Assembly: GCA_963719505.1 (NCBI GenBank)
Contig: CAVRCF010000005.1
Coordinates: forward strand, 704,001-768,000
Reading direction: 5' to 3'
DNA from: Halobacteriovoraceae bacterium
Lineage (GTDB): Bacteria > Bdellovibrionota > Bacteriovoracia > Bacteriovoracales > Bacteriovoracaceae
DNA: 64,000 nt
In this document: positions 7,769-60,944 of the stretch, in pieces
Numbering within the stretch: the stretch's first letter is position 1
How the letters are laid out: each line of letters opens with the position of its first letter
Made by a program: the position numbers and the translations under genes
Notes under the pieces: generated by a model
Told to the model about the DNA's origin: nothing
What the model saw: the letters and a program-made list of their open reading frames with translations, nothing else
Databases searched by the model: none

Positions 7769-8461
7769 ATGAGCAAAGTTTTATTAGTAGAAGACAGTAA
7801 AGAAATCAAAAAAATGGTGGAAATTTCTCTCTCCGGTTTAGTAGAGCAACTTGATTGGGCTGAAAATATAAATGCTGCAGAGGAAATCCTAAAAGAAGAG
7901 AAATATGATCTTGTCTTGTTAGATATTCAACTGCCAGATGGAAATGGAATTGAATTTTGCCAGAAGCTTTTCATGACATATCCAGATACTTCTATATTCA
8001 TGCTAACATCTCAAGACGCTTTATCTGAAAAGGTTATGGGTTTCTCCGCTGGGGCAGAAGACTACATCACAAAACCGTTTAGTACTCTTGAATTAAAAGC
8101 GAGAGTTGAAGCAAAATTAAAAAGAAAAGAGCTTCAAAAATCTAATAGCAATCTCCTTAATTGGGAGAAAATAAAGATTAATATATCTAACCAGGAAGTT
8201 GAAATTCTTGAAGGTGAAGCATTCAAAAGTATCGATCTCACAGCACTTGAATTCAAACTTTTAATCTATTTTGCCAACAGAGTTGGACAAGTTATTGAAA
8301 GAGACACTATCCTCAATGACATCTGGGGCGAAGATGTTCATGTATACTCAAGATCTGTCGACACTCATGTAAGTAAATTGAGAAAGAAACTCGAAGGCGT
8401 ATCTGGTATCATTGAATCTGTTCATGGCGCTGGTTACAAGTTTAATCCTACTCATAATTAG
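7769..8461 (+). CDS. OmpR/PhoB family response regulator
   Basis: Receiver (LVED, LLDIQLPDG, KPF) plus winged helix (RSVDTHVSKLRKK, VHGAGY). Confidence 0.95.
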   Translation: MSKVLLVEDSKEIKKMVEISLSGLVEQLDWAENINAAEEILKEEKYDLVLLDIQLPDGNGIEFCQKLFMTYPDTSIFMLTSQDALSEKVMGFSAGAEDYITKPFSTLELKARVEAKLKRKELQKSNSNLLNWEKIKINISNQEVEILEGEAFKSIDLTALEFKLLIYFANRVGQVIERDTILNDIWGEDVHVYSRSVDTHVSKLRKKLEGVSGIIESVHGAGYKFNPTHN

Positions 8462-8480
8462 AACAAAGATTTTTCAAATA

Positions 8481-8509
8481 AAAAAAGGGAGCTTTAAGCT
8501 CCCTTTTTT
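8481..8509. terminator. Bidirectional intrinsic terminator
   Basis: AAAAAAGGGAGC-TTTAA-GCTCCCTTTTTT between convergent genes. Confidence 0.85.
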
Positions 8510-8510
8510 G

Positions 8511-8879
8511 TTAGTTAATTGTTTTATCTAACTTTGATTCTATCTGTTCACCGTACTCTTCCATTTTTTCTTTAAAATCATCCCATTTCTGTGCTGTTGT
8601 TTCACTGGCTTGTTCTCCAGCTTTAGCCACCTCTTCTCTGTATTTGGCTGTGCTGGCTTTTAATTCTTTGTACTCTAGAACAAGCTTATCTTTAGCATCA
8701 CCTGAGAGCTTTACGGTTTTATCTTTTAACTTTTCAAGCTTAATTTCGAGCTTATCTAACTGTTGAGAAGCCTTCATTTTAAATTCTTCATAATCACCCT
8801 TATCTGAGGTTGTTGCATAAGCACCAAGAGAAAGGGATAAAATAACTGTAGTTAATAATAATTTTAATTTGTGTGACAT
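8511..8879 (-). CDS. Secreted amphipathic helical protein (stress-associated type)
   Basis: Signal peptide, K/E-rich heptads, KWDDFK; AAGGAGG RBS. Confidence 0.7.
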   Translation of the reverse strand: MSHKLKLLLTTVILSLSLGAYATTSDKGDYEEFKMKASQQLDKLEIKLEKLKDKTVKLSGDAKDKLVLEYKELKASTAKYREEVAKAGEQASETTAQKWDDFKEKMEEYGEQIESKLDKTIN

Positions 8880-8952
8880 AATTCCTCCTTATATCTTCAC
8901 AAACAATATGCCATCTTACTCAAAGTAAAAATGTTTTCTAAGGTGAAAGAAC

Positions 8953-49667: not shown

Positions 49668-51116
49668 TTGAACGTCATGTTGGATAATACTATTGCTTCA
49701 ATTAGTACCTACTCTGATCTTATTATTTTTTTCGCGTATACCAGCATCGTGGCAATTCTCATCTACTATTTTTTTATTAAGCTGCACATGAAGTTGAATT
49801 TATTTTTCATCTCCTTCAGCGGATTTATTCTGGTGAGTGGGTTAAACCATTTAGCCATATTCTTAAATAGCTTCAACGACGTTATTTTCCTCGTTTCGAT
49901 TCTGAAAATATTAAAAGCTTTTACAGCTTTATTGGCAACTGTAACACTATGGCCTTTTGTCAGAGATGCTCTCTACTTAAAAAGTCTCACAGAGAATGAA
50001 AGACAGAAAAGAGACCTCAAGATCTTCAAAGAAGCCTATGAAGATGCATCAATTGGCTTGGCGCTCCTAGATAAACAAGGACAACTGCTGAAAGCCAACA
50101 AAGAGCTCATTAGACTTTTTGGTTATGGTGAGGAATATACTCTTCACAGCAACATATACAAATTTATTAATAAGGTTGAAGCCAAGAAAAACGAAGATCT
50201 GTTTAAAAAGATCTATAAAAGCTCAGATGAGGTCTTTGATTTTAAATTGAAGTTTGTTAAAAATTCTGGCGAGGATTTTTGGGGAAAAGTTCAGCTTAAA
50301 GTGCACAGGAAAGACTCTGGTGAAATCGACTTTATTTCTGTCCAGATTACCGATATAACCAGAGAACTCGAAATTGAAAAAGAGCTTCAACGAGAGAGGG
50401 TAAATGCCGAAAATGATAGAAAGCTCGAGTATCTAAAAAGTATGGCTTCAAGTGTAGCCCACGAAATAAATAATCCTCTAACAATCATCAGTGGAGCGGC
50501 ACAAATCATTGAGATTCTTCTAAAGAAAGAAGATATCGATAAAGAAAAAATAAACCAAGAGATTAAAGATACAACTGAGTCGGTGTTAAGAATATCTAAA
50601 ATTATAAAATCTCTCAAGATGCTCTCTAGTGAGAAAAAAGAGCAACTTGAAAGCATACCTGTCTCCTCTATTTTGGACAATGTCATTGAGCTATGCCAAG
50701 CAAAGTTTGTTTCAAACGGCGTCACATTTGAAGTGACACAAGATGAAGGTATCTTTTTGAAAAAAATTAACTGCAATAAAATGCATATGTCACAAGTTTT
50801 AATTAATATGCTAAACAATTCTTTTGAAGCTCTTGAGAACTTAGATGAAAAATGGATAAATATTAAGGTCTATCAAAAAGAACATTCAATAGTCTTCGAC
50901 ATAGTAGATAGTGGTCATGGTATAAATGAAGAAAATAAAAGCAAAATATATCTTCCATTTTACACGACAAAATCTCAAGGTGAGAATGCTGGTCTTGGTT
51001 TGAGCTACTCAAAGTCAGTCATTCAAAATTACAATGGATCTTTAGAACTAATTGAAGATAAAAATACAACCTTTAGAGTTTCACTTCCCTTTGAAAGTGA
51101 ATTAGAAGTCGCCTAA
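49668..51116 (+). CDS. Sensor kinase with ethylene-receptor-like 3-TM N-terminus, PAS and HisKA/HATPase
   Basis: SDLIIFFAYTSI / FSGFILVSGLNHL; PAS; AHEINNPL, DSGHGI, GLGL. Confidence 0.8.
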   Translation: MNVMLDNTIASISTYSDLIIFFAYTSIVAILIYYFFIKLHMKLNLFFISFSGFILVSGLNHLAIFLNSFNDVIFLVSILKILKAFTALLATVTLWPFVRDALYLKSLTENERQKRDLKIFKEAYEDASIGLALLDKQGQLLKANKELIRLFGYGEEYTLHSNIYKFINKVEAKKNEDLFKKIYKSSDEVFDFKLKFVKNSGEDFWGKVQLKVHRKDSGEIDFISVQITDITRELEIEKELQRERVNAENDRKLEYLKSMASSVAHEINNPLTIISGAAQIIEILLKKEDIDKEKINQEIKDTTESVLRISKIIKSLKMLSSEKKEQLESIPVSSILDNVIELCQAKFVSNGVTFEVTQDEGIFLKKINCNKMHMSQVLINMLNNSFEALENLDEKWINIKVYQKEHSIVFDIVDSGHGINEENKSKIYLPFYTTKSQGENAGLGLSYSKSVIQNYNGSLELIEDKNTTFRVSLPFESELEVA

Positions 51117-51545
51117 AAGTTTTTCGTACTCAGAAACTAAACTGTCTGGATCATCACTTGACTGTTCTTTGGCTTCAAAGTTCTGTGACATTCCTCGAGT
51201 CACTGCACTCAGAAGATTTCCAAAGTGTGGCTTGTCGACAAAATCAAATGCACCATACTTAACGGCTTCTTTAACAAGGTTATCATCTCCATGGGAAGTG
51301 AAGAAAATAAAGGGGACTTCATTTTTTTTCTTTCTCACCTCTTTAACAAAATCAATTCCATTCATAACGGGCATATTGATATCGCTAACAACACAGCTAA
51401 TTCCTGGTTCCAGGGCCATCTTATCCAAAGCCTCTTGCCCATTGATGGCCGTAATAATACTCTCAACTTCCGAAGAAAGAATAGTTACTAGCTTATCCAA
51501 AATTTTAATCTCATCGTCGACGATAAGAAGAGTTTTTACTGACAT
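51102..51545 (-). CDS. Receiver domain protein
   Basis: IVDDE, SDINMP, FFTSHG, VDKP. Confidence 0.9.
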   Translation of the reverse strand: MSVKTLLIVDDEIKILDKLVTILSSEVESIITAINGQEALDKMALEPGISCVVSDINMPVMNGIDFVKEVRKKKNEVPFIFFTSHGDDNLVKEAVKYGAFDFVDKPHFGNLLSAVTRGMSQNFEAKEQSSDDPDSLVSEYEKLLGDF

Positions 51546-51728
51546 AATGGAATTCTCTCACTTAAAATATAAAAGTCACAGATTTTTTTAAGCAAATCTT
51601 ATTCGTTTAGAAAAAAGGGGGAAATCATCTATAAATTTATCAATAAAGGTATCATTTCCCAAAAAATTGATCTTATCGCCTTCACCTCTTATATTCCAAC
51701 GATTATTATTTACTACTTTCTTGATTAT

Positions 51729-52586
51729 ATGAATATTATTGAACCTCAGCAAAGGGTGACACCGATGCTTGTTTTCATAGGAGCTTTGATAGTGGATGGT
51801 GCCCATGTGTATTCAACATTATTCGTCACTTACTTTGATTCAAATATCAAAAGTAAAATTAAACTTCATTTGATCCTGGCCCCTTTGTTGACAATTTTGA
51901 TCTGCTATCTTCTTTATATTTATGAGTTTAAAGCCTTACTTCTTTCTTTAGTAGGAAGCTTTGCTCTTTTTCATTTCATTCGCCAAGAAGCTGGCTGGAT
52001 GAAATTAGCGGGAAGGCTCGACCCGAAGCAGCCGCAAATTCTCAATAAGGTAGATCTCTTTACCTCTTATATCTTTACGATAACTCCCGTTTTATATCTT
52101 ATATCAGAGAGGAATCGTGGCTTTTGGCTCTCCAGAGGAGATCTTCCTATCATCCCAAACCTTTACTGGGACACTGGGAAATACATAATGCTTTTTACCG
52201 GTTTGGTTTGGCTTGGCTTTAATATAAGACACTGGAGAAAAACCAAACTGATTAACGGCTCGAAACTTTTAATCATTCTTAGTAATCTCGCTGCTTGGTT
52301 TTTCGCCCTAACTTATCTTGCTGGATCTTGGCTAGGACTCCTTCTCATAATCCTCCCTCATGGAGTTCCCTACTTCTTTTTGGTCGCAAAGGAGCACAAT
52401 AAAAAATCTCCAAATAAGTTAACAATTTATCCTTTTCTATACCTACTTTGTGTTTTGTTATATTTTTTTGAAACAAGAGTTGGTGGTCTTAAAAATCCAA
52501 TATTGACATCAATTGCGATAATGCCTCAAATAGTTCACTACTATCTGGATGGAATCATTTGGAAGAGATCAATCCAATCTCGCTAA
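51729..52586 (+). CDS. Polytopic membrane protein with four conserved-looking His motifs
   Basis: About 8 TM; DGAHVYST, HFIRQ, HGVPY, HYYLDGIIWK. Confidence 0.75.
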   Translation: MNIIEPQQRVTPMLVFIGALIVDGAHVYSTLFVTYFDSNIKSKIKLHLILAPLLTILICYLLYIYEFKALLLSLVGSFALFHFIRQEAGWMKLAGRLDPKQPQILNKVDLFTSYIFTITPVLYLISERNRGFWLSRGDLPIIPNLYWDTGKYIMLFTGLVWLGFNIRHWRKTKLINGSKLLIILSNLAAWFFALTYLAGSWLGLLLIILPHGVPYFFLVAKEHNKKSPNKLTIYPFLYLLCVLLYFFETRVGGLKNPILTSIAIMPQIVHYYLDGIIWKRSIQSR

Positions 52587-52732
52587 GCAACTGTTTTTAC
52601 TTATAGCCAGAGTAAATTTGGCTAATTTCTTGATTCAATATTGAACAATATGCTACCTTTAAGTATAAACAAAAGTTTAATAAAATATAATCAGCACAAA
52701 ATCCACCCAAGTTTGTGACAGGGTGCTTTAAT

Positions 52733-52819
52733 GTGGATAAATTTAAAGAGTTTTTTGGTGAAATTAAAGTCACAATTCTAGATTTAGATCTTGAGGCACA
52801 AGATGATGCTGGAACATAA
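52733..52819 (+). CDS. Putative precursor peptide A1, 28 aa: MDKFKEFFGEIKVTILDLDLEAQDDAGT
   Basis: GTG start; shares the EFFG-x-I-x-V-xxx-DLD motif with the downstream repeats; weak RBS. Confidence 0.5.
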   Translation: MDKFKEFFGEIKVTILDLDLEAQDDAGT

Positions 52820-52842
52820 TAAAAGTACAATAAGGTAAATGC

Positions 52843-52965
52843 ATGAAAGAGTTAGAAGACTTTTTTGGAACGATTGAAGTCAATCAAGTAGATCTCGATG
52901 AAAACGACTTAGAGATTTTTGCCAATATGGCGGCTGAAGAAACTCTAGAGAAGGCAATTGAGTAA
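52843..52965 (+). CDS. Putative precursor peptide A2, 40 aa: MKELEDFFGTIEVNQVDLDENDLEIFANMAAEETLEKAIE
   Basis: TAAGG RBS 7 nt before ATG; clean ORF; near-identical to A3. Confidence 0.75.
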   Translation: MKELEDFFGTIEVNQVDLDENDLEIFANMAAEETLEKAIE

Positions 52966-52993
52966 AACTGAAAAAATACAATAAGGCAAAACT

Positions 52994-53116
52994 ATGGAAG
53001 AGGTAGAAGATTTTTTTGGAACGATTGAAGTCAATCAAGTAGATCTCGATGAAAACGACTTGGAGATTTTTGCCAATATGGCGGCTGAAGAAACTCTAGA
53101 GAAGGCAATTGAGTAA
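52994..53116 (+). CDS. Putative precursor peptide A3, 40 aa: MEEVEDFFGTIEVNQVDLDENDLEIFANMAAEETLEKAIE
   Basis: TAAGG RBS 7 nt before ATG; differs from A2 by K2E, L4V and two synonymous changes. Confidence 0.75.
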   Translation: MEEVEDFFGTIEVNQVDLDENDLEIFANMAAEETLEKAIE

Positions 53117-53144
53117 AACTGAAAAAATACAATAAGGCAAAACT

Positions 53145-53281
53145 AATGAAGAGTTAGAAGAATTTTTTAGAACATTAGAACAATTGAAGTCAATCAAGTA
53201 GATCTCGATGAAAATGACTTGGAGATTTTTGCCAATATGGCCCTCGAAGAGCCAACAAATAAAGAACTTTCATTTGAGTAA
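53145..53281 (+). pseudogene. Degenerate precursor peptide copy A4 (...TIEVNQVDLDENDLEIFANMALEEPTNKELSFE)
   Basis: Same RBS context but the ATG is out of frame (ATG AAG AGT TAG); 8-bp tandem duplication TTAGAACA; distinct C-terminus. Confidence 0.65.
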
Positions 53282-53296
53282 CCTCGGAGAAAAGAA

Positions 53297-53572
53297 ATGA
53301 ATAAAACATACTCTTTAAATCCAAGTCTTTTCTTCTCATCAAATGATGAAAAGTTAAATATTATTAGTCTAGAAGATAAGAATAACGAAGTTATATCTTT
53401 AACGAAAGTAAATGCTCTTATATTTCCAGATATCGTGGATGGAAAAACCCAAAATGAAATTCTTGAAAAAGTTAAAGCTCTACCCGACTGCCCGGAAGAG
53501 AAGGAAGTTGAAAAATATTTGTCTAATTTTCTCGTAAAATTAGAAGAATTGAACGTTATTGTTCCCAAATAA
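53297..53572 (+). CDS. Stand-alone PqqD-family / RiPP recognition element (RRE)-like protein
   Basis: 91 aa; three short beta-like segments then helices (ISLTKVNALIFPDIVDGKTQNEILEKV...EVEKYLSNFLVKLEELNVI), typical PqqD layout; GGAG RBS. Confidence 0.75.
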   Translation: MNKTYSLNPSLFFSSNDEKLNIISLEDKNNEVISLTKVNALIFPDIVDGKTQNEILEKVKALPDCPEEKEVEKYLSNFLVKLEELNVIVPK

Positions 53573-54782
53573 AATCTTTCAAAAGAAGTTGAATAAATCG
53601 GCTCACTCCATCAATCGAATGTTGATCAGCATCAAGTCCAGAAAAGCGAAAACAACTATTTGCTTCATTGGTATTAGAATCCTCAAAAGCTCCTAAAAGA
53701 CATGAGTCCAGCCCAAAACTCGTGCCCCAAAAAACGGGAAGTTCAGCTTTTGCTTTGAGTTTATTAACTCTTAAGGCAAAATTCTCATCAGTTGATTTTA
53801 TCTTGATGAGCGAAAATAGCTCATGATGGACATTTGTTCTAAACGGCTTATGACCATGCTTAAGCACATTCACCTCTATATCTTTAAGATTTTTTTTGAA
53901 GCGCCCTACTCTTTTTAGGTTGAGATGATGATATTTCTCACTCCAAAAGAATGGAAGTATATTCTCTAAATTTGAAAATCCCCCATAACGTCCAAAATAG
54001 CGGTGAAAGAAATTTTCTGCACTCTTGTCTCTTTTTTCTTTAAAGCGATCAAAGTATTGAAGATTAAAAGCATAAAGACTTCCAAGTTGAGCATACTCCT
54101 CTCCAAAAGAGTCAGTCTTAATAAGACTCTTTATGATAAAAACAGCCGCACCTGAAGACTTAAGTTTTATAAAAACTTCTTTTTCAAGAAGTGAGCCTGT
54201 TAAAAGACAAGTCGCATCGACAACAATAATATCGTACGCTGAAAAATCAAGCGCCTCATAAGTTGAAGTCTCAGAAACACTATAATCAAGTATTAAGCAT
54301 CGATCTCCACCGCTTTGATCTTTCTGTTCTAAAGACTTAATAACTTTATTTGTGTCAAAATAAATGGACGTCACAGGTCTTACAAACTCAATATTAGTAT
54401 CGATTGATGTAACAAAAGTCAGCACGATCGCCATTGCACCTTGAGCGCTAGAGGTGAAAGCGGCAAACTCCTCACCACCGCCAATATCAACCAAAGAGTG
54501 GGGATGAATAAAACGAAACTTATTATCTCCCATAAACCTATACCCTTCCCTTGAATAAGTATAAGAGATGTTCTGACCATAGAAGTTGAGCGGCTTATTC
54601 ATCAGATTCGTTGTTGGAAATTCTATCTTATCGATTGCCTCTTTTCTGATGTGTCTAAAAAGATATTTTTTGGCAACTCTAATGTCTTCTGCACAATGAA
54701 CGGGATGAAGAGATGCCTTTACGCCAGCAAACGTACACAAATAGTCAATTTCCTCTCTTTTAGACTCAATATAGGATGACAC
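53556..54782 (-). CDS. Divergent PLP-dependent fold-type I enzyme (Cys/Met metabolism-like)
   Basis: FTSSAQGAM, VVDATC, KSLIK(TD) candidate Schiff-base Lys, GTSFG; GTG start with GGAG RBS. Confidence 0.55.
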   Translation of the reverse strand: MSSYIESKREEIDYLCTFAGVKASLHPVHCAEDIRVAKKYLFRHIRKEAIDKIEFPTTNLMNKPLNFYGQNISYTYSREGYRFMGDNKFRFIHPHSLVDIGGGEEFAAFTSSAQGAMAIVLTFVTSIDTNIEFVRPVTSIYFDTNKVIKSLEQKDQSGGDRCLILDYSVSETSTYEALDFSAYDIIVVDATCLLTGSLLEKEVFIKLKSSGAAVFIIKSLIKTDSFGEEYAQLGSLYAFNLQYFDRFKEKRDKSAENFFHRYFGRYGGFSNLENILPFFWSEKYHHLNLKRVGRFKKNLKDIEVNVLKHGHKPFRTNVHHELFSLIKIKSTDENFALRVNKLKAKAELPVFWGTSFGLDSCLLGAFEDSNTNEANSCFRFSGLDADQHSIDGVSRFIQLLLKDFIWEQ

Positions 54783-54811
54783 ATATTCTCCGTAGATTTA
54801 AAATATCCTAC

Positions 54812-56497
54812 ATGAATCATAAAACAAAAACTGAACTCTTTGTAGGAATAAATTTGGGTCATCATGATGCAAGCTGTTGTGAACTCGATACAGCTTCTCA
54901 AAGTTTTACTATTTATGAAGAAGAAAGACTCTCAAGAGTTAAAAGTAGAGGGTTTTATCCCTTTTTATCTGTCAACCAACTTCAAAACTCTTCCTTCTCA
55001 AAGCTCGATAACAAACAGGAAGTAAAAGTTTCCTTCTCTAGCTTTATGACTGATATTGAAAAATCTTGGGAACTTTCTCAAAAGAAGAAAGAAGCTTCCT
55101 TTATTCTTCTCAACGAGAATTTTCAACCTAAGAAAATCTCAAAAAGTATAATCCATCATGAAGCTCACCTCTTTTCAGCCCTACCTCTTGTAGATACGAG
55201 CGCTGACTATCTTGTCGTCGTTGCTGACGGCTGTGGCAGTAACCTAGATGATCTAGAACTCCACTCTTTTTTTGATCAAGATACTTCTCAAGCGGAGGGC
55301 TATGAAATGATCTCAGCTTATTCTTGGCGGCAAAGATCACTAGAACAAGTGGATAAAAAGTGTAGCCTTCTGTATTGGAAGAAAAATAAAAAGGACTCCT
55401 TCTATCCAGCTTCATTTTTTACCAGTGCAGCTAAAATCGTCTTTGGAGATTGGAAGCATAGTGGAAAAGTCATGGGTCTTTCCGCTTACCACACCGGTGA
55501 GCTTTATTCTCGAGACGAGCTTTTTGATAAAATGTACAACGCCGAGGTTCCTGAAAAACTTGATCCGACGGCTTTTGATAATTTATCCGACCCCATTCTT
55601 AAAGAAAAACAAAAGATTTGTGCCAGTGTTCAGTACTACTATGAAGAGTTTATGTTCGAATACCTTGAGACTTTACAAAAAAAGACAAAGCTAAAAAATT
55701 TAATCTTAATTGGTGGCTGTGCTCTCAATTGTGTTTTTAATGAAAAGCTCAGAAAGAAAAAAATCTTTGCAAATATTTATGTCCCACCATGGCCAAATGA
55801 CGAAGGGATCTCTTTTGGTTCCACAGTGGCATCCTACTACAATGAAAACGCAAAACTCCCTCTTATTAAAAACACGAAGTCTCCCTTTAGGGGAATGAAT
55901 TTTCAATATAGCGAACGTGATATAATAGAACAGTTTAAGGATTATACAATTGAGCCTTTTAATATTAATACAGTTGTCGAGCTATTTATCAAAGGTGAAG
56001 TTATCGGTTGGTATGAAAATCAAAGTGAATGTGGACCACGGGCCCTTGGTCATCGCTCCATTTATGCTGACCCCTTTAAAGCCGGGATAAAAGACTTTCT
56101 TAATAGTAAGATTAAATTTAGAGAAAACTTTAGACCTTATGGATGCTCCATCTTAGAGGAGGACCAAAGCCTATTCTTTGAAGATCACCAAGGACTCAAC
56201 TCCCCCTTTATGTCATTTGCCCCCATAGTCTTAACTGAGCAAAGACAAAGGCTCAAGGAGGTTATACATAAGGATCAAAGTATACGAATTCAAACTGTCG
56301 ATGACACGTTTGACGGTTTAAAAAAGTTCTTAGAAAAAATTAAAGAAAAAAGAGGAAATTCTCTCATTATTCATACAAGCATGAATATTAATAAGATGCC
56401 CATTGTAAATTCCATTCATGATGCAAAGGAATTCTTTGCTAAAAGTAATATCAAATACATGGTCTTTAATGACTACTTAATCTCAAAGCCTGTATAA
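54812..56497 (+). CDS. Carbamoyltransferase, NodU/CmcH/TobZ family
   Basis: HHDAS, EEERLSRVK, HHEAH, DGCG, GKVMGLSAY, GGCALNC, ECGPRALGHRS, KFRENFRPYG, TSMN; ATG 54812 preferred over 54776. Confidence 0.93.
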   Translation: MNHKTKTELFVGINLGHHDASCCELDTASQSFTIYEEERLSRVKSRGFYPFLSVNQLQNSSFSKLDNKQEVKVSFSSFMTDIEKSWELSQKKKEASFILLNENFQPKKISKSIIHHEAHLFSALPLVDTSADYLVVVADGCGSNLDDLELHSFFDQDTSQAEGYEMISAYSWRQRSLEQVDKKCSLLYWKKNKKDSFYPASFFTSAAKIVFGDWKHSGKVMGLSAYHTGELYSRDELFDKMYNAEVPEKLDPTAFDNLSDPILKEKQKICASVQYYYEEFMFEYLETLQKKTKLKNLILIGGCALNCVFNEKLRKKKIFANIYVPPWPNDEGISFGSTVASYYNENAKLPLIKNTKSPFRGMNFQYSERDIIEQFKDYTIEPFNINTVVELFIKGEVIGWYENQSECGPRALGHRSIYADPFKAGIKDFLNSKIKFRENFRPYGCSILEEDQSLFFEDHQGLNSPFMSFAPIVLTEQRQRLKEVIHKDQSIRIQTVDDTFDGLKKFLEKIKEKRGNSLIIHTSMNINKMPIVNSIHDAKEFFAKSNIKYMVFNDYLISKPV

Positions 56498-57615
56498 CTA
56501 GAATATACTTCGCGATAGAGAGACTTTCCACTTTTTTTCCTAAAGGGAAAGCTTTTGCGATAGGTTTTAGAAAAAAGACGAAAAGTTTGGCTTTGCCCTA
56601 AGTACTCATTTTTTTGCTGAATGATTTCACTTATTTTAAGATTAAAGGATTCGTACGATAGCTGTGTTGAAAGATCGTGATCAACGATACTATTCACTCT
56701 CCCTTTCAAGCCCATAAGTGCGCTTAAAAGATTCTTTTTATTTATTCTTGGAATGAGATCTTCATCAACTTCTACGCCAACCATATCTGAGAAATCATTA
56801 TAAGCCCCATGCCCTCCCCAGTTGCTTAACACCAGTTGGTGCCCTTTTAAAAAGCCCTGGGCAATGCTTACGCCAAAATCTTCATCGTGGTAGGTACTCA
56901 TTGAAACCGAGTACTGACAGTTACCCATCACTTGTTCAAGAGAGCCTTGCTCTAGACTTCCATGATACTCAATTCCTCCATCTGACTTTTTAATCAAAGA
57001 GTAAAAAGTATCCTTAAAAACATTCATATCAACTTTATAGCCATGAAGATGATAGCCCCTATCGTGGAAATCTCCAGCTATATGAAGCTTTAACTGAGAA
57101 TTAAAACGTCTCGCATTGATAAAGACACTCATGAGTTCAAGAATATTTTTTTGAGGAGTTAACCTTCCTGCATAAATGAGACTTTTTCCCGCTGATGAAG
57201 TCACTATTGAAGGTTTCATAGGATAAGGAACAATATGACAAGCACCACTTTGAACCAAGCTTTGAATCTGATCTTTTGATCTTGGGCTGGCCGCAAGAAG
57301 TGAGACATTTTCTCCAAGTAAATTGTCTCCAATATAATTCCAGCGATCAAGTTCTACTGTCATATTTCCATAGACCGGTAAAATAAAATGATTTTTTTTA
57401 CCTAAAAGAGCGGAAAGTGAATCTTGCCACTTAAAATGGTCTGACATAAAAAATATATCTGATTCTGGCAAAATTGAATCAACCTGGGCGGGATCAATAT
57501 AATGAACTTCAAATGGAGCGCGATCAAGCGCCTCACAAATATACTTTTGAATGATATTACAACTAAGCCAGAAATGATCTTCATCCACTTTTAAGACATA
57601 AAGTTTATTCTTCAT
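56473..57615 (-). CDS. Glycosyltransferase, GT4 (GT-B fold)
   Basis: IYAGRLTPQKNI, LHIAG, EDFGVSIAQ, SNWGG; ATG 57615 overlaps the upstream stop. Confidence 0.85.
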   Translation of the reverse strand: MKNKLYVLKVDEDHFWLSCNIIQKYICEALDRAPFEVHYIDPAQVDSILPESDIFFMSDHFKWQDSLSALLGKKNHFILPVYGNMTVELDRWNYIGDNLLGENVSLLAASPRSKDQIQSLVQSGACHIVPYPMKPSIVTSSAGKSLIYAGRLTPQKNILELMSVFINARRFNSQLKLHIAGDFHDRGYHLHGYKVDMNVFKDTFYSLIKKSDGGIEYHGSLEQGSLEQVMGNCQYSVSMSTYHDEDFGVSIAQGFLKGHQLVLSNWGGHGAYNDFSDMVGVEVDEDLIPRINKKNLLSALMGLKGRVNSIVDHDLSTQLSYESFNLKISEIIQQKNEYLGQSQTFRLFSKTYRKSFPFRKKSGKSLYREVYSSYTGFEIK

Positions 57616-58690
57616 AAAGGCCTTTAAAAAACGTTGCCTTAAGTTTTTGCAAAACTTTAAAATTTTGCGCAATAATAAAGAGGTACACAAAGTTTTTCCC
57701 TGGAGGGTTTAGAAACATAAAACCATTTCGATCTCCTTTTTTATAGACAGGCCAGCGAGATTCATCAAGAGAGAATCCTTTTTTAAAACTTAATTCAAAA
57801 AATTGTCCTACTCCCGATTCAGGCAAGAAATTTCGTAACTCAGCTAAAAGCGATCCCATATTAATCCTATAATTAACTTCACACAGGGGATAAATGCCAA
57901 TGCGATCTCCATCTTTAAATAAAAAACCATCAATCGTGAGATTTTGCTGAAGATCGAATTTCTTTAACTCCTCTAGCAGACTGATAGAAGTTGAGACTGC
58001 TTTATTGTAGTCTTCAAGAGCATCTAAGGATTTTAAGTAAATATCCTTATCTTCATTCTTATCAAAAATAAGCCCACCAAAGTAGTGACCAGTCTTGTTC
58101 ATCATCGTAAGATAATCGAAACTCTCATTCGTAACTGGATTATAGTGAATTGAATAGTCAAGAATTCTCTCATAGAAAGGCTCAAGAACCTTTACCTCTT
58201 TAAAAGGCTTTGCATCGGAAGCTCTTTCAATCACTTCAAAGCCTTGTCCCGCTTTGTAGAAGCAGTTCTTTAAAAGCCACTTTCTGTTTTTAAAATCAAT
58301 CTTTTTGAGATCGTGATCGGAAGTGAGAAAGTGAAAATCTTTTGGAAGGAGATTGTTCATCTCTAGAAATTTATAAGTCCAAGCTTTGGAATTTAAATTT
58401 TTCTCCAGCTCTATATCAGTTAACTTACCATACCAGTTAACAACTCCTCTTTCATCCTTTGTGAATCTTGGAATAATAAACCCAAATCCTTTCAACTTAT
58501 CGATAAAATCCACAGAATAATCCTCTAAAACAAAGAGTTCACAGTCTGGATCTTTATTGATGGCAAAAAATAAAAATTCAGCACATCCCCACACTTCTCG
58601 ATTTCTTAAAACTCGCTCTGGACTAAAGCCAAGTTCCTGCGCAAAGAGTTCAACTTCATACTCTGAATTTACTCTATATTTGATTGTCAT
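57605..58690 (-). CDS. ATP-grasp fold ligase (unassigned subfamily)
   Basis: NSK, WLLK...KAGQG, VLEPFYER..DYS, IDGF, CEVNYRINMG. Confidence 0.7.
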   Translation of the reverse strand: MTIKYRVNSEYEVELFAQELGFSPERVLRNREVWGCAEFLFFAINKDPDCELFVLEDYSVDFIDKLKGFGFIIPRFTKDERGVVNWYGKLTDIELEKNLNSKAWTYKFLEMNNLLPKDFHFLTSDHDLKKIDFKNRKWLLKNCFYKAGQGFEVIERASDAKPFKEVKVLEPFYERILDYSIHYNPVTNESFDYLTMMNKTGHYFGGLIFDKNEDKDIYLKSLDALEDYNKAVSTSISLLEELKKFDLQQNLTIDGFLFKDGDRIGIYPLCEVNYRINMGSLLAELRNFLPESGVGQFFELSFKKGFSLDESRWPVYKKGDRNGFMFLNPPGKNFVYLFIIAQNFKVLQKLKATFFKGLYEE

Positions 58691-59694
58691 AGAAAAACGA
58701 TATCTGCTTGATCGATTCCGTTAAAGGAATGATTCCAAGCCGTAGAGTATCCACTTACATTTTCAACGATAATATTATCACCGATGCAAATACTTAGTGG
58801 ATCTAATTGAATAGTCGCTAAAACGTCACTCTCATAGCAGCTTGGACCTGCAACCTTTAAATCTTCATTCTTTTTCTCAGTAACAGGTTTACAATGCCTG
58901 TAGCGAATTTTTACTCTGTTATCAATCCATCTAAGATGGCAAGTTGGCGACAAAGAACAAATAATCGTTTTGTTGTAAAAAGCGAGAACTTTCCCAACCG
59001 CCACGCCGGAGCTTGCGGAAATCCATCTTCCAGGCTCAAAGTAGAGGGTTGTGTTGGGAAGGTTTTGATAGGCATATTTTGTTATACTTTTGATTTCATC
59101 AAGACTCAAAGGTGCGAAGCCCCCCCCAAAATTGATAGATAAGTTTCTGTTTGCTGCTATAGAGATGAGGCGATCAATCATTTCTTCATAGTCTGTTACT
59201 TTATTTTCTAACCCTCCAAAGTGAAGGTGTAGATGTTTAATGGATGGAAACTTGGCTAAAGTATCCTCTAAGTCATTTAATTTGACTCCAAAGCGAGAAC
59301 CCTCTCCAAGGAAGTCTGTCGATACTCGTAAGGAAATATTATCAAACTTGCTCACTCTACCCAAGTCCTCGAGGCAATTGATGTCATTGACTGAATTCTC
59401 TAAAGGTGAATAAAATGGTGAAGAATTCCAAACGATCTTTTTGTCGAGTTCGGAGATCAAATTTTGCTCGTTAATATTTGAAACATCAAATCCAAAAAGA
59501 AACTGTGAAGCAAGTTTAAGAACTTCGGTATTAGGAAATGACTTCACGGGAAAAAGAAACTTAACCCTATCATTTTCAAGGCTCTTAAGACCCTCAAAGT
59601 TTGCCAGCAAATCTTTTTTAGAAAAGTAGTAACAGGTACTTCTTTCCATGCTCTCAAACTCTCGTAAACAAACCTTAGTTGATAAATACTGCAT
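58687..59694 (-). CDS. Group IV PLP-dependent decarboxylase (DAP/ornithine/carboxynorspermidine decarboxylase-like)
   Basis: FPVKS (PLP Lys), SRFG, HLHFG, NFGGGF, FEPGR, GPSCYESD, GYS. Confidence 0.88.
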   Translation of the reverse strand: MQYLSTKVCLREFESMERSTCYYFSKKDLLANFEGLKSLENDRVKFLFPVKSFPNTEVLKLASQFLFGFDVSNINEQNLISELDKKIVWNSSPFYSPLENSVNDINCLEDLGRVSKFDNISLRVSTDFLGEGSRFGVKLNDLEDTLAKFPSIKHLHLHFGGLENKVTDYEEMIDRLISIAANRNLSINFGGGFAPLSLDEIKSITKYAYQNLPNTTLYFEPGRWISASSGVAVGKVLAFYNKTIICSLSPTCHLRWIDNRVKIRYRHCKPVTEKKNEDLKVAGPSCYESDVLATIQLDPLSICIGDNIIVENVSGYSTAWNHSFNGIDQADIVFL

Positions 59695-59873
59695 TTTAAA
59701 ATTATAAGGAAACCCCGTTTTAATGGCAAGAAACCATTACCTGGTCCAAAAGACTAAATTTCAAAGGCTTAGCACTGCACAATAGTATGTAGACATAACC
59801 TTGTTTAAAGACTTTTAAAGGCCAAAGTCTAATTTATTTGCTATGGTCCTAAAAAATTAAAAGAGAGAAAACT

Positions 59874-60944
59874 ATGACAAATATAAAAATTGACCCAAAA
59901 GCCATTTCAAACCTAGAGAATTTTCAAAATCCAACAGATATTCAATTTGGAAAAACTTTAGTTCCAGCACTTTTAAAGTGTGAATATCGAGACGGTCAAT
60001 GGGGTGAGCTTGAATTCTTACCCTATCACAAGATACTCATTGATCCGGCAGCTAAGGTTCTTCATTACGCACAAGAAATTTTCGAAGGACTAAAAAGTTA
60101 TAAGAACGATGAAGATGAGGTTTTCTTATTTAGACCTGAAGAAAATGCAAAAAGATTCAATAAATCAGCAGTGAGAATGGGAATGCCTGAACTTCCGGAA
60201 GAGATCTTTATTGATTCTCTCAAGTGCTTAGTTAAGCACTCTCACCACACATTTTCTAAAGAGCTTGGAGATTCGTTTTATTTAAGACCTTTTATGTTCG
60301 GAGATGAACCTCAATTAGGTGTCAAACCATCTTCAACTTACCAATATTATCTTATTGGGGGCCCAGCAGGAAACTACTTCACAAAGCCCTCGGTGAAAGT
60401 CAGAGTTGAAAAAGAGTCCCACCGAGCATCTTCAAAAGGGATTGGAAGTGCAAAGACTGGTGGGAACTATGCTGCCAGTATGGCCGCAAATAAAGTGACC
60501 AGCGAGCAAAATTATGACCAAACACTTTGGCTTGACCCCGTCTATGGTGAGTTTATTGAGGAATTGTCAGGAATGAACTTCTTCGCAGTTATCGATGATG
60601 TTTTAGTGACACCTGAGCTTGGAAATTCAATTCTTCACGGAATAACGAGGGCATCACTTCTAGAGCTTGCCCAAAGCTTTGGTATAAAGGTTCAAGAAAA
60701 AAAGATTTCTATAAATGAACTTATGGACCAAATAGATTCCAAAAGTTGTACAGAGCTTTTTGCATCTGGAACGGCATCTGTTCTTACTCCAATAGAATGT
60801 TTGAAACTCGACGATAGAGAAGCATTCGTCAAACATCCAAATGGAAAAATATCAGTGAAATTAAAAGAAGCCCTTCAAAAACTTCAAACAGGTCGAAGTG
60901 AAGATCCTTTTAATTGGAGACAACAGGTCGATCTTACAAAATAA
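59874..60944 (+). CDS. ilvE: Branched-chain amino acid aminotransferase
   Basis: LHYAQEIFEGLK, LFRPEEN, YLRPF, AKTGGNYA, EELSGMNFF, ILHGITR, GTA. Confidence 0.95.
   Translation: MTNIKIDPKAISNLENFQNPTDIQFGKTLVPALLKCEYRDGQWGELEFLPYHKILIDPAAKVLHYAQEIFEGLKSYKNDEDEVFLFRPEENAKRFNKSAVRMGMPELPEEIFIDSLKCLVKHSHHTFSKELGDSFYLRPFMFGDEPQLGVKPSSTYQYYLIGGPAGNYFTKPSVKVRVEKESHRASSKGIGSAKTGGNYAASMAANKVTSEQNYDQTLWLDPVYGEFIEELSGMNFFAVIDDVLVTPELGNSILHGITRASLLELAQSFGIKVQEKKISINELMDQIDSKSCTELFASGTASVLTPIECLKLDDREAFVKHPNGKISVKLKEALQKLQTGRSEDPFNWRQQVDLTK

Follow-up and report, generated by a model that had tools for sequence, protein, structure and literature searches.

The question raised by this locus is what a tandem array of small, acidic open reading frames (ORFs) encodes at positions 52733-53281 of a 64,000-nucleotide stretch from a Halobacteriovoraceae bacterium (contig CAVRCF010000005.1, positions 704,001 to 768,000; the whole stretch is hereafter called the window). 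The array consists of four copies, termed A1 to A4, and is followed directly, on the same strand, by a gene for a 91-amino-acid PqqD-like protein. Based on analyses of the repeat and its reading frames, comparisons with related genomes and predicted structures of the neighbouring proteins, we consider it probable that A1-A3 are ribosomally made precursor peptides of an undescribed peptide-modification cluster that depends on a RiPP (peptide made on the ribosome and modified after translation) recognition element, or RRE, and that A4 is a dead paralogue of these. The array and its immediate surroundings are organized as follows.

52604..52624, + strand: terminator-like hairpin 3' of the gene for a membrane protein (consensus scan; weak, 1 site found versus 1.0 expected)
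52733..52819, + strand: A1, divergent copy, 28 amino acids from a GTG start
52843..52965, + strand: A2, 40-amino-acid ATG ORF, precursor-like peptide
52994..53116, + strand: A3, 40-amino-acid ATG ORF, precursor-like peptide with 95% identity to A2
53145..53281, + strand: A4, decayed copy with AAT in place of the start codon, Gly replaced by Arg in the motif, and a frameshift
53167..53182, + strand: two copies of an 8-bp direct duplication, TTAGAACA (Tandem Repeats Finder and alignment of the copies)
53297..53572, + strand: 91-amino-acid PqqD-like protein, putative discrete RRE, with GGAG 7 nt 5' of the ATG

Tandem Repeats Finder detects a 151-bp period with 2.7 copies and 91% matches at 52821-53241, and the ORFs and the alignment of the copies agree with a preliminary description of this DNA, which had called the repeat coding. 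TAAGG lies 7 nt 5' of the ATG in both A2 and A3. These two copies differ at 4 codons, synonymously at GAC/GAT and TTA/TTG and nonsynonymously at K2E and L4V, and both peptides are acidic (13 and 14 Asp/Glu among 40 residues) and devoid of Cys, Ser, Trp, Tyr and His. The frame of A1 runs from GTG 52733 (alternatively GTG 52715) to a stop at 52817-52819; the FFGxIxV...DLD motif is kept, the second acidic block is absent and the tail reads LEAQDDAGT. The C-terminal residue is Thr in A1, and it is Glu in A2, A3 and A4.

The fourth copy, A4, is decayed. Its codon matching the ATG is AAT (53145-53147), and its frame is shifted because of the duplication at 53167-53182. A distinct tail, ALEEPTNKELSFE, remains readable in the shifted frame. 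From IEV to ANM, A3 and A4 differ at a single one of 19 codons (57 nt), again synonymously (AAC/AAT), and beyond ANM the near-identical leader DNA diverges abruptly into unlike tails. Ribosome-binding sites, synonymous differences, acidic composition, the common motif and the four different tails are thus as had been described; for A4, the Gly-to-Arg change and the frameshift had been recognized, and the loss of the start codon makes the damage greater than was noted.

The hairpin at 52604-52624 suggests that the peptide array may begin a new transcript. The consensus scan finds no terminator-like site between the array and the 91-amino-acid gene, and Rfam gives no match at E<=1 within 52000-53800. 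The exact A3 sequence is present, nameless, in a public protein collection, and a DNA dataset with few shared words provides a single 153-nt contig that spans 52600-52719 only, outside the A2/A3 duplication.

Are the peptides of the array peculiar to this genome? The preliminary description had named conservation of the motif in related genomes as a check, and such conservation was found. A first peptide profile, built from the window and the genomes G014, G235 and G009, was used to search 3-kb loci (n=30) fetched around matches to a profile of the 91-amino-acid protein. At E<0.1, small frames matching it occur in 10 of these 30 loci and, additionally, in a wider G009 locus, which recovers seven genomes outside the profile (G237, G227, G230, G098, G091, G085 and G249), all of the same GTDB family. 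Two more genomes, G196 and G154, display the motif to the eye with non-significant scores. A1 scores E 5e-6 against a family profile that includes the window peptides. Metagenome loci anchored on a neighbouring gene for an enzyme-like protein of the pyridoxal phosphate (PLP) type extend the family further: 8 of 56 carry 12 additional members at E<0.01, all eight being of low to medium G+C. These peptides, too, lie beside homologues of the 91-amino-acid gene.

We aligned 19 peptides (alignment A10), taken from the window, from 10 other genomes and from one additional locus of the GTDB family, designated f1. They share a common architecture, in which a variable, Lys-rich N-terminus precedes the motif D-F/Y-x-x-F/Y-G-x-I/F-x-V with an invariant Gly, followed by an acidic stretch, a junction of the form hydrophobic-[M/Y/F/L]-[A/G/S] and, finally, an unrelated tail of 7-27 residues. 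The tails in the window are ANMAAEETLEKAIE and AQDDAGT; examples from the relatives are ASARRRRRD, GGFFSTARD, AVKMNDV, AQTVSQK and SKIMPYTPPPPAF. Even the last residue varies, being E, T, D, R, V, P, K, G, L or F. The motif is held across host DNA of 36% (window), 41%, 52% and up to 60% G+C, or 30% to 60% when the metagenome loci are included. None of the 19 peptides matches NCBIfam at E<=1, the window peptides have no Pfam match, and of the 21 such small proteins in the public protein collection, none bears a name other than 'hypothetical protein' and none has a Pfam domain.

As a control, a profile of the 16 non-window peptides was run against this genome's small open frames, 97,647 in number. 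A2 and A3 rank first (E 0.029) and second (E 0.049) of all frames; the A4 remnant ranks ninth with a non-significant E of 9, and A1 falls outside the top 15. By the ranks of A2 and A3 in this comparison, the array pattern exceeds chance.

A second peptide gene of G014 (L008 11504-11695, - strand) contains an in-frame TAA 16 codons past a plausible ATG (MSTKKETTKPTEGKKD*SKLKIHKDF...). Its close homologues P0159 and P0162, from other samples, read through at this position, and the G014 copy therefore either starts at an internal Met (38 amino acids) or is damaged.

The gene directly downstream of the array provides a further line of evidence. Twenty homologues of the 91-amino-acid protein, from genomes of the same GTDB family, were aligned (alignment A9), and 12 of these 20 match Pfam PqqD, with a best E-value of 1.5e-13. 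Against the PDB, the alignment profile detects the lasso leader-binding proteins TbiB1 (5v1u, 1.4e-4) and TfuB1 (6jx3, 3.2e-4), followed by a PqqD family protein (9x8z, 1.8e-3) and PqqD itself (3g2b, 0.052). On the strength of these profile matches, the protein is read as a putative discrete RRE of the PqqD-like family. At E<=0.001, an RRE profile matches 59 of the order's 238 genomes, and all 58 outside this genome belong to family f1. With a conserved N-terminus, a variable core and an adjoining RRE gene recurring across genomes, the leader/core layout that the preliminary description had surmised gains support.

This genome also has a second PqqD-like gene, outside the window (contig C3 182944-183204; L128 8927-9211; profile E 7.6e-10), beside a gene for a glycosyltransferase (GT) of the GT1-like type. 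No family peptide lies within 9 kb of it.

Which enzymes could act on such peptides? The neighbouring genes encode the following proteins.

51729..52586, + strand: polytopic, His-rich membrane protein, 285 amino acids; family unassigned, no Pfam or NCBIfam match
53556..54782, - strand: divergent fold-type I PLP-enzyme-like protein, 408 amino acids; no Pfam match, assigned by AlphaFold2 and Foldseek
54776..56497, + strand: NodU/TobZ-type carbamoyltransferase homologue, 573 amino acids as called (Pfam, PDB)
56473..57690, - strand: GT-B/GT1-like protein, 405 amino acids as called; Pfam Glycos_transf_1 at 3.9e-5, under the curated cut-off
57605..58690, - strand: predicted ATP-grasp ligase, 361 amino acids; no Pfam match, AlphaFold2 mean predicted local distance difference test (pLDDT) score 96.0
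58687..59694, - strand: fold-type III PLP decarboxylase homologue, 335 amino acids; Pfam Orn_Arg_deC_N at 1.3e-5

The carbamoyltransferase homologue is assigned by sequence. Carbam_trans_C matches at 5e-49 and Carbam_trans_N at 4.5e-19, the latter over residues 276-349 only, and the PDB matches are led by 7xb6 (3.7e-43), with the O-carbamoyltransferases GdmN, NovN and TobZ behind it and residues 271-572 aligned. A Kae1-like N-terminal and a YrdC-like C-terminal domain are both found (Pfam, PDB). The first ~270 residues are divergent, and the sequence contains an HHxxH motif. Alignments with homologues begin at about residue 21, and the probable initiator is an internal Met near residue 13. Similarly, the GT1-like protein, with homologues in L009, L052, L053 and L064 whose alignments start near residue 26, probably starts there. 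From these alignment starts, both ORFs as called are probably overlong at the 5' end (54776-54840 and 57616-57690, respectively), so that the overlaps with their neighbours would be smaller.

The 361-amino-acid protein gave nothing useful in sequence-only PDB searches with small alignments, as was the case also for the PLP-like protein, and a 75-row profile of it against the PDB returned weak PurD and PurK matches only. VIA-align places its predicted structure closest to 3wvq (Z 26.3, root-mean-square deviation 3.5, 326 residues aligned) and 3wvr (Z 25.7), followed by BesA (8yi6, Z 23.8), 8ynd, an 'ATP-grasp peptide ligase from Streptomyces' (Z 23.7), and 7r8q, an amino-acid ligase (Z 22.7). 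Neither LysX nor RimK appears among the 50 structural matches listed. We take 3wvq to be PGM1, the PDB entry title stating only 'ATP grasp protein', and the fold is then nearest to PGM1-type ligases (Z 26.3 versus ~19 for PurK-type proteins as the next group). Judged from this model, the protein is an ATP-grasp enzyme whose structural neighbours are peptide and amino-acid ligases. Its family is large, with 796 representatives at E<=0.001 in a full HMMER search; a word-index search gave 2.

For the fold-type I PLP-enzyme-like protein (AlphaFold2 mean pLDDT 84.6), the top Foldseek matches are cystathionine gamma-synthase, gamma-lyase and beta-lyase at template-modelling scores of only ~0.45, and K222 and D189 are invariant in 14 homologues. 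The decarboxylase homologue matches NCBIfam lysA (4.3e-12) and nspC (4.4e-10), both far under the cut-offs, and PDB 2yxx (4.8e-9), with diaminopimelate (DAP), carboxynorspermidine and ornithine decarboxylases as its nearest relatives.

The membrane protein has homologues in L008 and L055 (two copies each), L009 and L067, and searches of a protein atlas returned clusters of 'hypothetical protein' only. D23, H26, H82, Q86, H211, Y215, H270, D274 and W278 are invariant, a pattern more suggestive of an enzyme embedded in the membrane than of a simple transporter.

When every window ORF at 49668-60944 was scanned against Pfam and NCBIfam, no class-defining RiPP enzyme was detected, i.e. no Asn-synthase-like cyclase, LanB/C/M, radical SAM, YcaO or MNIO protein. 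Just upstream (49668-51545), a histidine kinase gene with an ETR1-like N-terminal domain and PAS convergently overlaps a stand-alone response-regulator receiver gene; a regulatory link of this pair to the cluster is possible.

Does this set of enzymes recur with the peptides? We compared 21 related genome loci, several of which lie on truncated contigs. The carbamoyltransferase is found in 12, the PLP-like protein in 10 and the decarboxylase in 8 of these, and in L008, L052, L055, L058, L059, L061 and L064 no gene separates the RRE gene from that of the carbamoyltransferase. One metagenome locus, L075, carries the same gene set as the window: decarboxylase, peptide, RRE, PLP-like protein, carbamoyltransferase, ATP-grasp enzyme, GT and membrane protein. 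ATP-grasp genes occur in 2 of the 21 genome loci (L009 and L053) and in the metagenome loci L070 and L075. Other loci possess AsnB-like (L058, L059), FemAB-like (L064) or B12-radical SAM (L063, L067) proteins, and variable accessory genes include 2-oxoglutarate oxygenases and, together with AEC-type transporters, dehydrogenases of the iron-type alcohol dehydrogenase family PF00465 (PF00465 in L008, L054 and L055). Other genes stand between the peptides and the RRE gene in G014, G230 and G009.

The PLP-like gene has a wider distribution. It is paired with the decarboxylase without peptide or RRE in L082, L083, L084, L086, L102 and L123, and it stands alone, again without peptides or RRE, in several Bradyrhizobium species (L014-L021) and other high-G+C genomes; it is therefore not confined to peptide clusters.

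The G237 variant (L053) carries a creatininase-family gene (8007-8921, - strand; PF02633, 6.8e-32) directly beside the precursor peptide. PF02633 is the family of the mycofactocin peptidase MftE. The L053 protein is a candidate enzyme for removal of the leader or the tail in this variant.

A separate peptide cluster was observed in the related genome G013 (L010 8184-11582), with a YcaO protein (639 amino acids), a nitroreductase-family protein (407 amino acids) and a PqqD-like gene of its own. This locus was rejected as a relative, since the 407-amino-acid gene shows no relationship (13% identity) and its surroundings form a cluster of the YcaO and nitroreductase kind.

Combining the peptide family, its linkage to RRE genes and the enzyme folds described above, we infer translation, leader binding, a sequence of chemical steps and a product along the following lines. 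The conserved D/E-F-F-G-x-I-x-V segment (D-F/Y-x-x-F/Y-G-x-I-x-V in the relatives) would be the recognition sequence and would be bound by the 91-amino-acid PqqD-like protein, which would in turn present the hypervariable core to the cluster enzymes. The core would be the part beyond the junction of a hydrophobic, an aromatic or Met, and a small residue. The NodU/TobZ-type carbamoyltransferase homologue, whose gene adjoins the RRE gene in most of the related loci, is probably the first enzyme to act on the peptide and would be expected to use carbamoyl phosphate and ATP for carbamoylation of a side-chain amine or hydroxyl. The two PLP enzymes probably produce an amine or amino-acid building block, which the ATP-grasp ligase would join to the peptide in the variant found in the window, and the GT1-like enzyme may add a sugar.

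Precedent for a NodU-like carbamoyltransferase working on a ribosomal peptide comes from StdF, which carbamoylates a Lys of a RiPP precursor with carbamoyl phosphate and ATP and is counted, in the 2026 preprint that describes it (PMC13174530), as the second carbamoyltransferase associated with RiPPs. Another paper mentions fusions of RREs with PF02543 carbamoyltransferases (PMC12710340).

A bolder version of the proposal is possible, though we hold it at less than even chances. It would see here a novel RiPP class, encountered to date almost exclusively in the predatory Bacteriovoracaceae, in which the RRE recruits a stand-alone NodU-type carbamoyltransferase, a module of two PLP enzymes supplies a nonproteinogenic building block, and interchangeable ligases (ATP-grasp, AsnB-like or FemAB-like) join this block to the cores. 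The products would be peptide-small-molecule hybrids, possibly directed against prey or competitors.

Several observations weigh against reading A1-A3 as precursors of this kind. At the level of the peptides, no conserved core residue in alignment A10 marks a modification site, the leave-window-out E-values are modest (0.03-0.05) and A1 is not recovered. Among the datasets listed, no RNA dataset covers 52600-53600. At the level of the RRE, the window's 91-amino-acid sequence alone has no Pfam match above threshold. The strong cluster form did not turn up in the three same-genus genomes searched (82-90% complete), of which one gives no match to the RRE profile and two give weak ones (4.3e-5 and 9.5e-6). 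Prediction of a complex between the RRE and A2, a check that the preliminary description had also named, with both partners supplied as alignments, scores 0.43 against 0.01 for the best of three controls, with a partner pLDDT of at least 57 and contact agreement between runs of at least 73%. Of 80 solved complexes, 58 reach the mark applied, as do 2 of 110 mismatched pairs; at scores of 0.60 or lower only 7 of the 80 solved complexes reach it, along with both passing mismatches. The prediction thus gives weak support to leader binding, and as solved RRE-leader complexes exist, the pass may reflect likeness to these.

At the level of the enzymes, several look like small-molecule enzymes, and given the PLP-like/decarboxylase pairs without peptides and the lone PLP-like gene of Bradyrhizobium, some of the cluster may work exclusively on small molecules. 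The restriction of the ATP-grasp enzyme to few loci implies that a ligation step cannot be general. Moreover, PLP enzymes require a free amine.

These points lead to the main alternative, namely that the peptides are reusable scaffolds or carriers of a pearlin-like or LysW-like type, to which an amino acid would be joined by ligation. The PLP enzymes, carbamoyltransferase and GT would alter it in its bound state before it leaves the peptide as a small molecule, the tail being irrelevant. Such a role would accommodate hypervariable tails alongside a conserved enzyme set and the small-molecule relatives of most of the enzymes (TobZ/GdmN/NovN, DAP/carboxynorspermidine decarboxylase and the cystathionine-synthase-like PLP fold). 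It would also agree with the structural proximity of the ATP-grasp enzyme to BesA and amino-acid ligases, the other amide-forming enzymes of the relatives (AsnB-like in L058 and L059, FemAB-like in L064), the creatininase-family hydrolase beside the L053 peptide and the terminal Glu of A2, A3 and A4. However, the terminal residue is not conserved across alignment A10, the peptides have no zinc-ribbon Cys, Pfam and NCBIfam detect neither a LanB-like PEARL (peptide aminoacyl-tRNA ligase) nor LysX/Z/Y/J/K-type genes, and the ATP-grasp enzyme is missing from most of the related clusters. An amino acid attached through its alpha-amine would presumably leave no free amine for PLP chemistry, and a carrier is usually encoded by one conserved gene and not by an array whose tails diverge. 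On balance, we regard a scaffold role as unlikely.

Two explanations outside biosynthesis appear less probable still. The small ORFs could encode immunity factors, inhibitors or partners of the PqqD-like protein, or other small acidic proteins, with neighbours that make an unrelated glycoconjugate. The window contains no class-defining RiPP enzyme, and the GT, carbamoyltransferase and membrane proteins would also fit tailoring of a polysaccharide or glycolipid; yet the tight pairing of the peptide family with PqqD-like genes, and a leader/core pattern with multiplied paralogues and diverging tails, which is typical of RiPP precursors, make this very improbable. Least probable of all, in our estimate, is that the array comprises upstream ORFs with a regulatory role (leader peptides of the attenuation type), or is a repeat that is not translated, before an operon that starts with the 91-amino-acid gene. 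The array does lie directly 5' of that gene, on the same strand and with no terminator-like site between them. Against this, an amino-acid motif is conserved at 30-60% G+C while DNA and tails differ, each intact copy has its own ribosome-binding site, and an Rfam match is lacking at E<=1. Furthermore, the peptides of G014, G230 and G009 lie away from the RRE gene, separated from it by other genes, and attenuation therefore does not fit.

The precursor reading of A1-A3 places them in a familiar kind of system, one in which tandem precursors accompany a discrete RRE; neither their leader family nor the combination of enzymes is described in Pfam or NCBIfam. Among the matches listed for open-access papers and bioRxiv, no paper deals with such a cluster in Bacteriovorax, Halobacteriovorax or Bdellovibrionota, and nothing comes nearer than the carbamoyltransferase precedents in PMC13174530 and PMC12710340. 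If correct, the reading defines a new leader-peptide family of more than 30 distinct peptides, none covered by Pfam or NCBIfam, in a recurrent cluster without any enzyme on which RiPP mining tools key. It would make an RRE-guided NodU-type carbamoyltransferase directly testable, where two RiPP-associated carbamoyltransferases have been counted so far (PMC13174530). It would also provide a defined substrate for a divergent PLP enzyme, for an ATP-grasp family of 796 representatives and for the His-rich membrane protein, and it would point to ribosomal natural products in bacterial predators.

How, then, does the locus compare with known systems? For membership of the lasso, lanthipeptide, sactipeptide/ranthipeptide, linear azol(in)e-containing peptide (LAP)/thiopeptide, MNIO and mycofactocin/pyrroloquinoline quinone (PQQ) classes, the class-defining enzyme was not found among the ORFs at 49668-60944. 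Other candidates were set aside on individual grounds. Graspetides were rejected, as the ATP-grasp enzyme occurs in 2 of 21 genome loci and the cores have no conserved pattern of Thr/Ser/Lys plus Asp/Glu. A mycofactocin-like reading, raised by the creatininase-family gene of L053, was rejected for the window, where neither a radical SAM enzyme nor conserved residues in the cores are found. Daptides were considered because A1 ends in Thr and relatives (L008, L054 and L055) carry PF00465, and they share tandem precursors, an RRE and a PLP enzyme with the window. The C-terminal Thr of daptides is converted to an amine and is the sole conserved core residue, according to PMC12670281; of the peptides in alignment A10, only A1 ends in Thr, and the PF00465 dehydrogenase, PF00202 aminotransferase and methyltransferase are absent from the window (Pfam), so this reading was rejected also.

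LysW is a zinc-ribbon protein with Cys ligands and a conserved C-terminal Glu as its loading site. The preliminary description had likened the peptides to such carriers, and there are resemblances: small acidic peptides, a terminal Glu in A2, A3 and A4, and an ATP-grasp gene in the cluster. In contrast to LysW, however, A1-A3 have no Cys and no zinc ribbon, and the terminal Glu is unconserved. Pfam and NCBIfam detect no kinase, reductase, aminotransferase or hydrolase of the LysZ/Y/J/K type in the window cluster, which has a PqqD-like partner instead. The ATP-grasp enzyme, nearest to 3wvq, BesA and 8ynd, is found in 2 of the 21 loci. The LysW-like part of that description is thus unsupported, and its leader/core part is supported.

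In the lasso systems with B1 proteins (TbiB1, TfuB1) and in PqqA/PqqD, small precursor genes lie beside a PqqD-like protein of ~90 amino acids, as here, and the leader motif is conserved and the core variable in these systems and in the window alike. In the window, Pfam detects no lasso cyclase, B2 protease, radical SAM, YcaO, LanB/C or MNIO protein, the leader motif matches no NCBIfam or Pfam model, and the partners are a carbamoyltransferase homologue and PLP enzymes.

We know of no RRE in pheganomycin biosynthesis. In that pathway, the ATP-grasp enzyme PGM1 couples a small core peptide of ribosomal origin with a nonproteinogenic amino acid (PMC8939145). Pheganomycin and the window have in common an ATP-grasp enzyme whose best structural match is 3wvq/3wvr and the presence of a ribosomal peptide and amino-acid-type tailoring enzymes in one cluster. 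They differ in that the sequence identity of the window enzyme to its ATP-grasp matches is only 11-14%, and in that the ATP-grasp gene is absent from most of the related clusters.

The closest parallels for the carbamoyltransferase are the std cluster, with StdF, and crocagin, which PMC12710340 and PMC13174530 both cite. In StdF, an S8/S53 peptidase is fused to the carbamoyltransferase, the target is a conserved SNKEWQE motif, and the partners are YcaO-TfuA and MNIO (PMC13174530), whereas the carbamoyltransferase of the window is a stand-alone protein, the cores are hypervariable and YcaO-TfuA and MNIO partners are absent. Common to the std cluster, crocagin and the window is the association of a NodU/TobZ-family carbamoyltransferase with a ribosomal precursor and an RRE-type protein.

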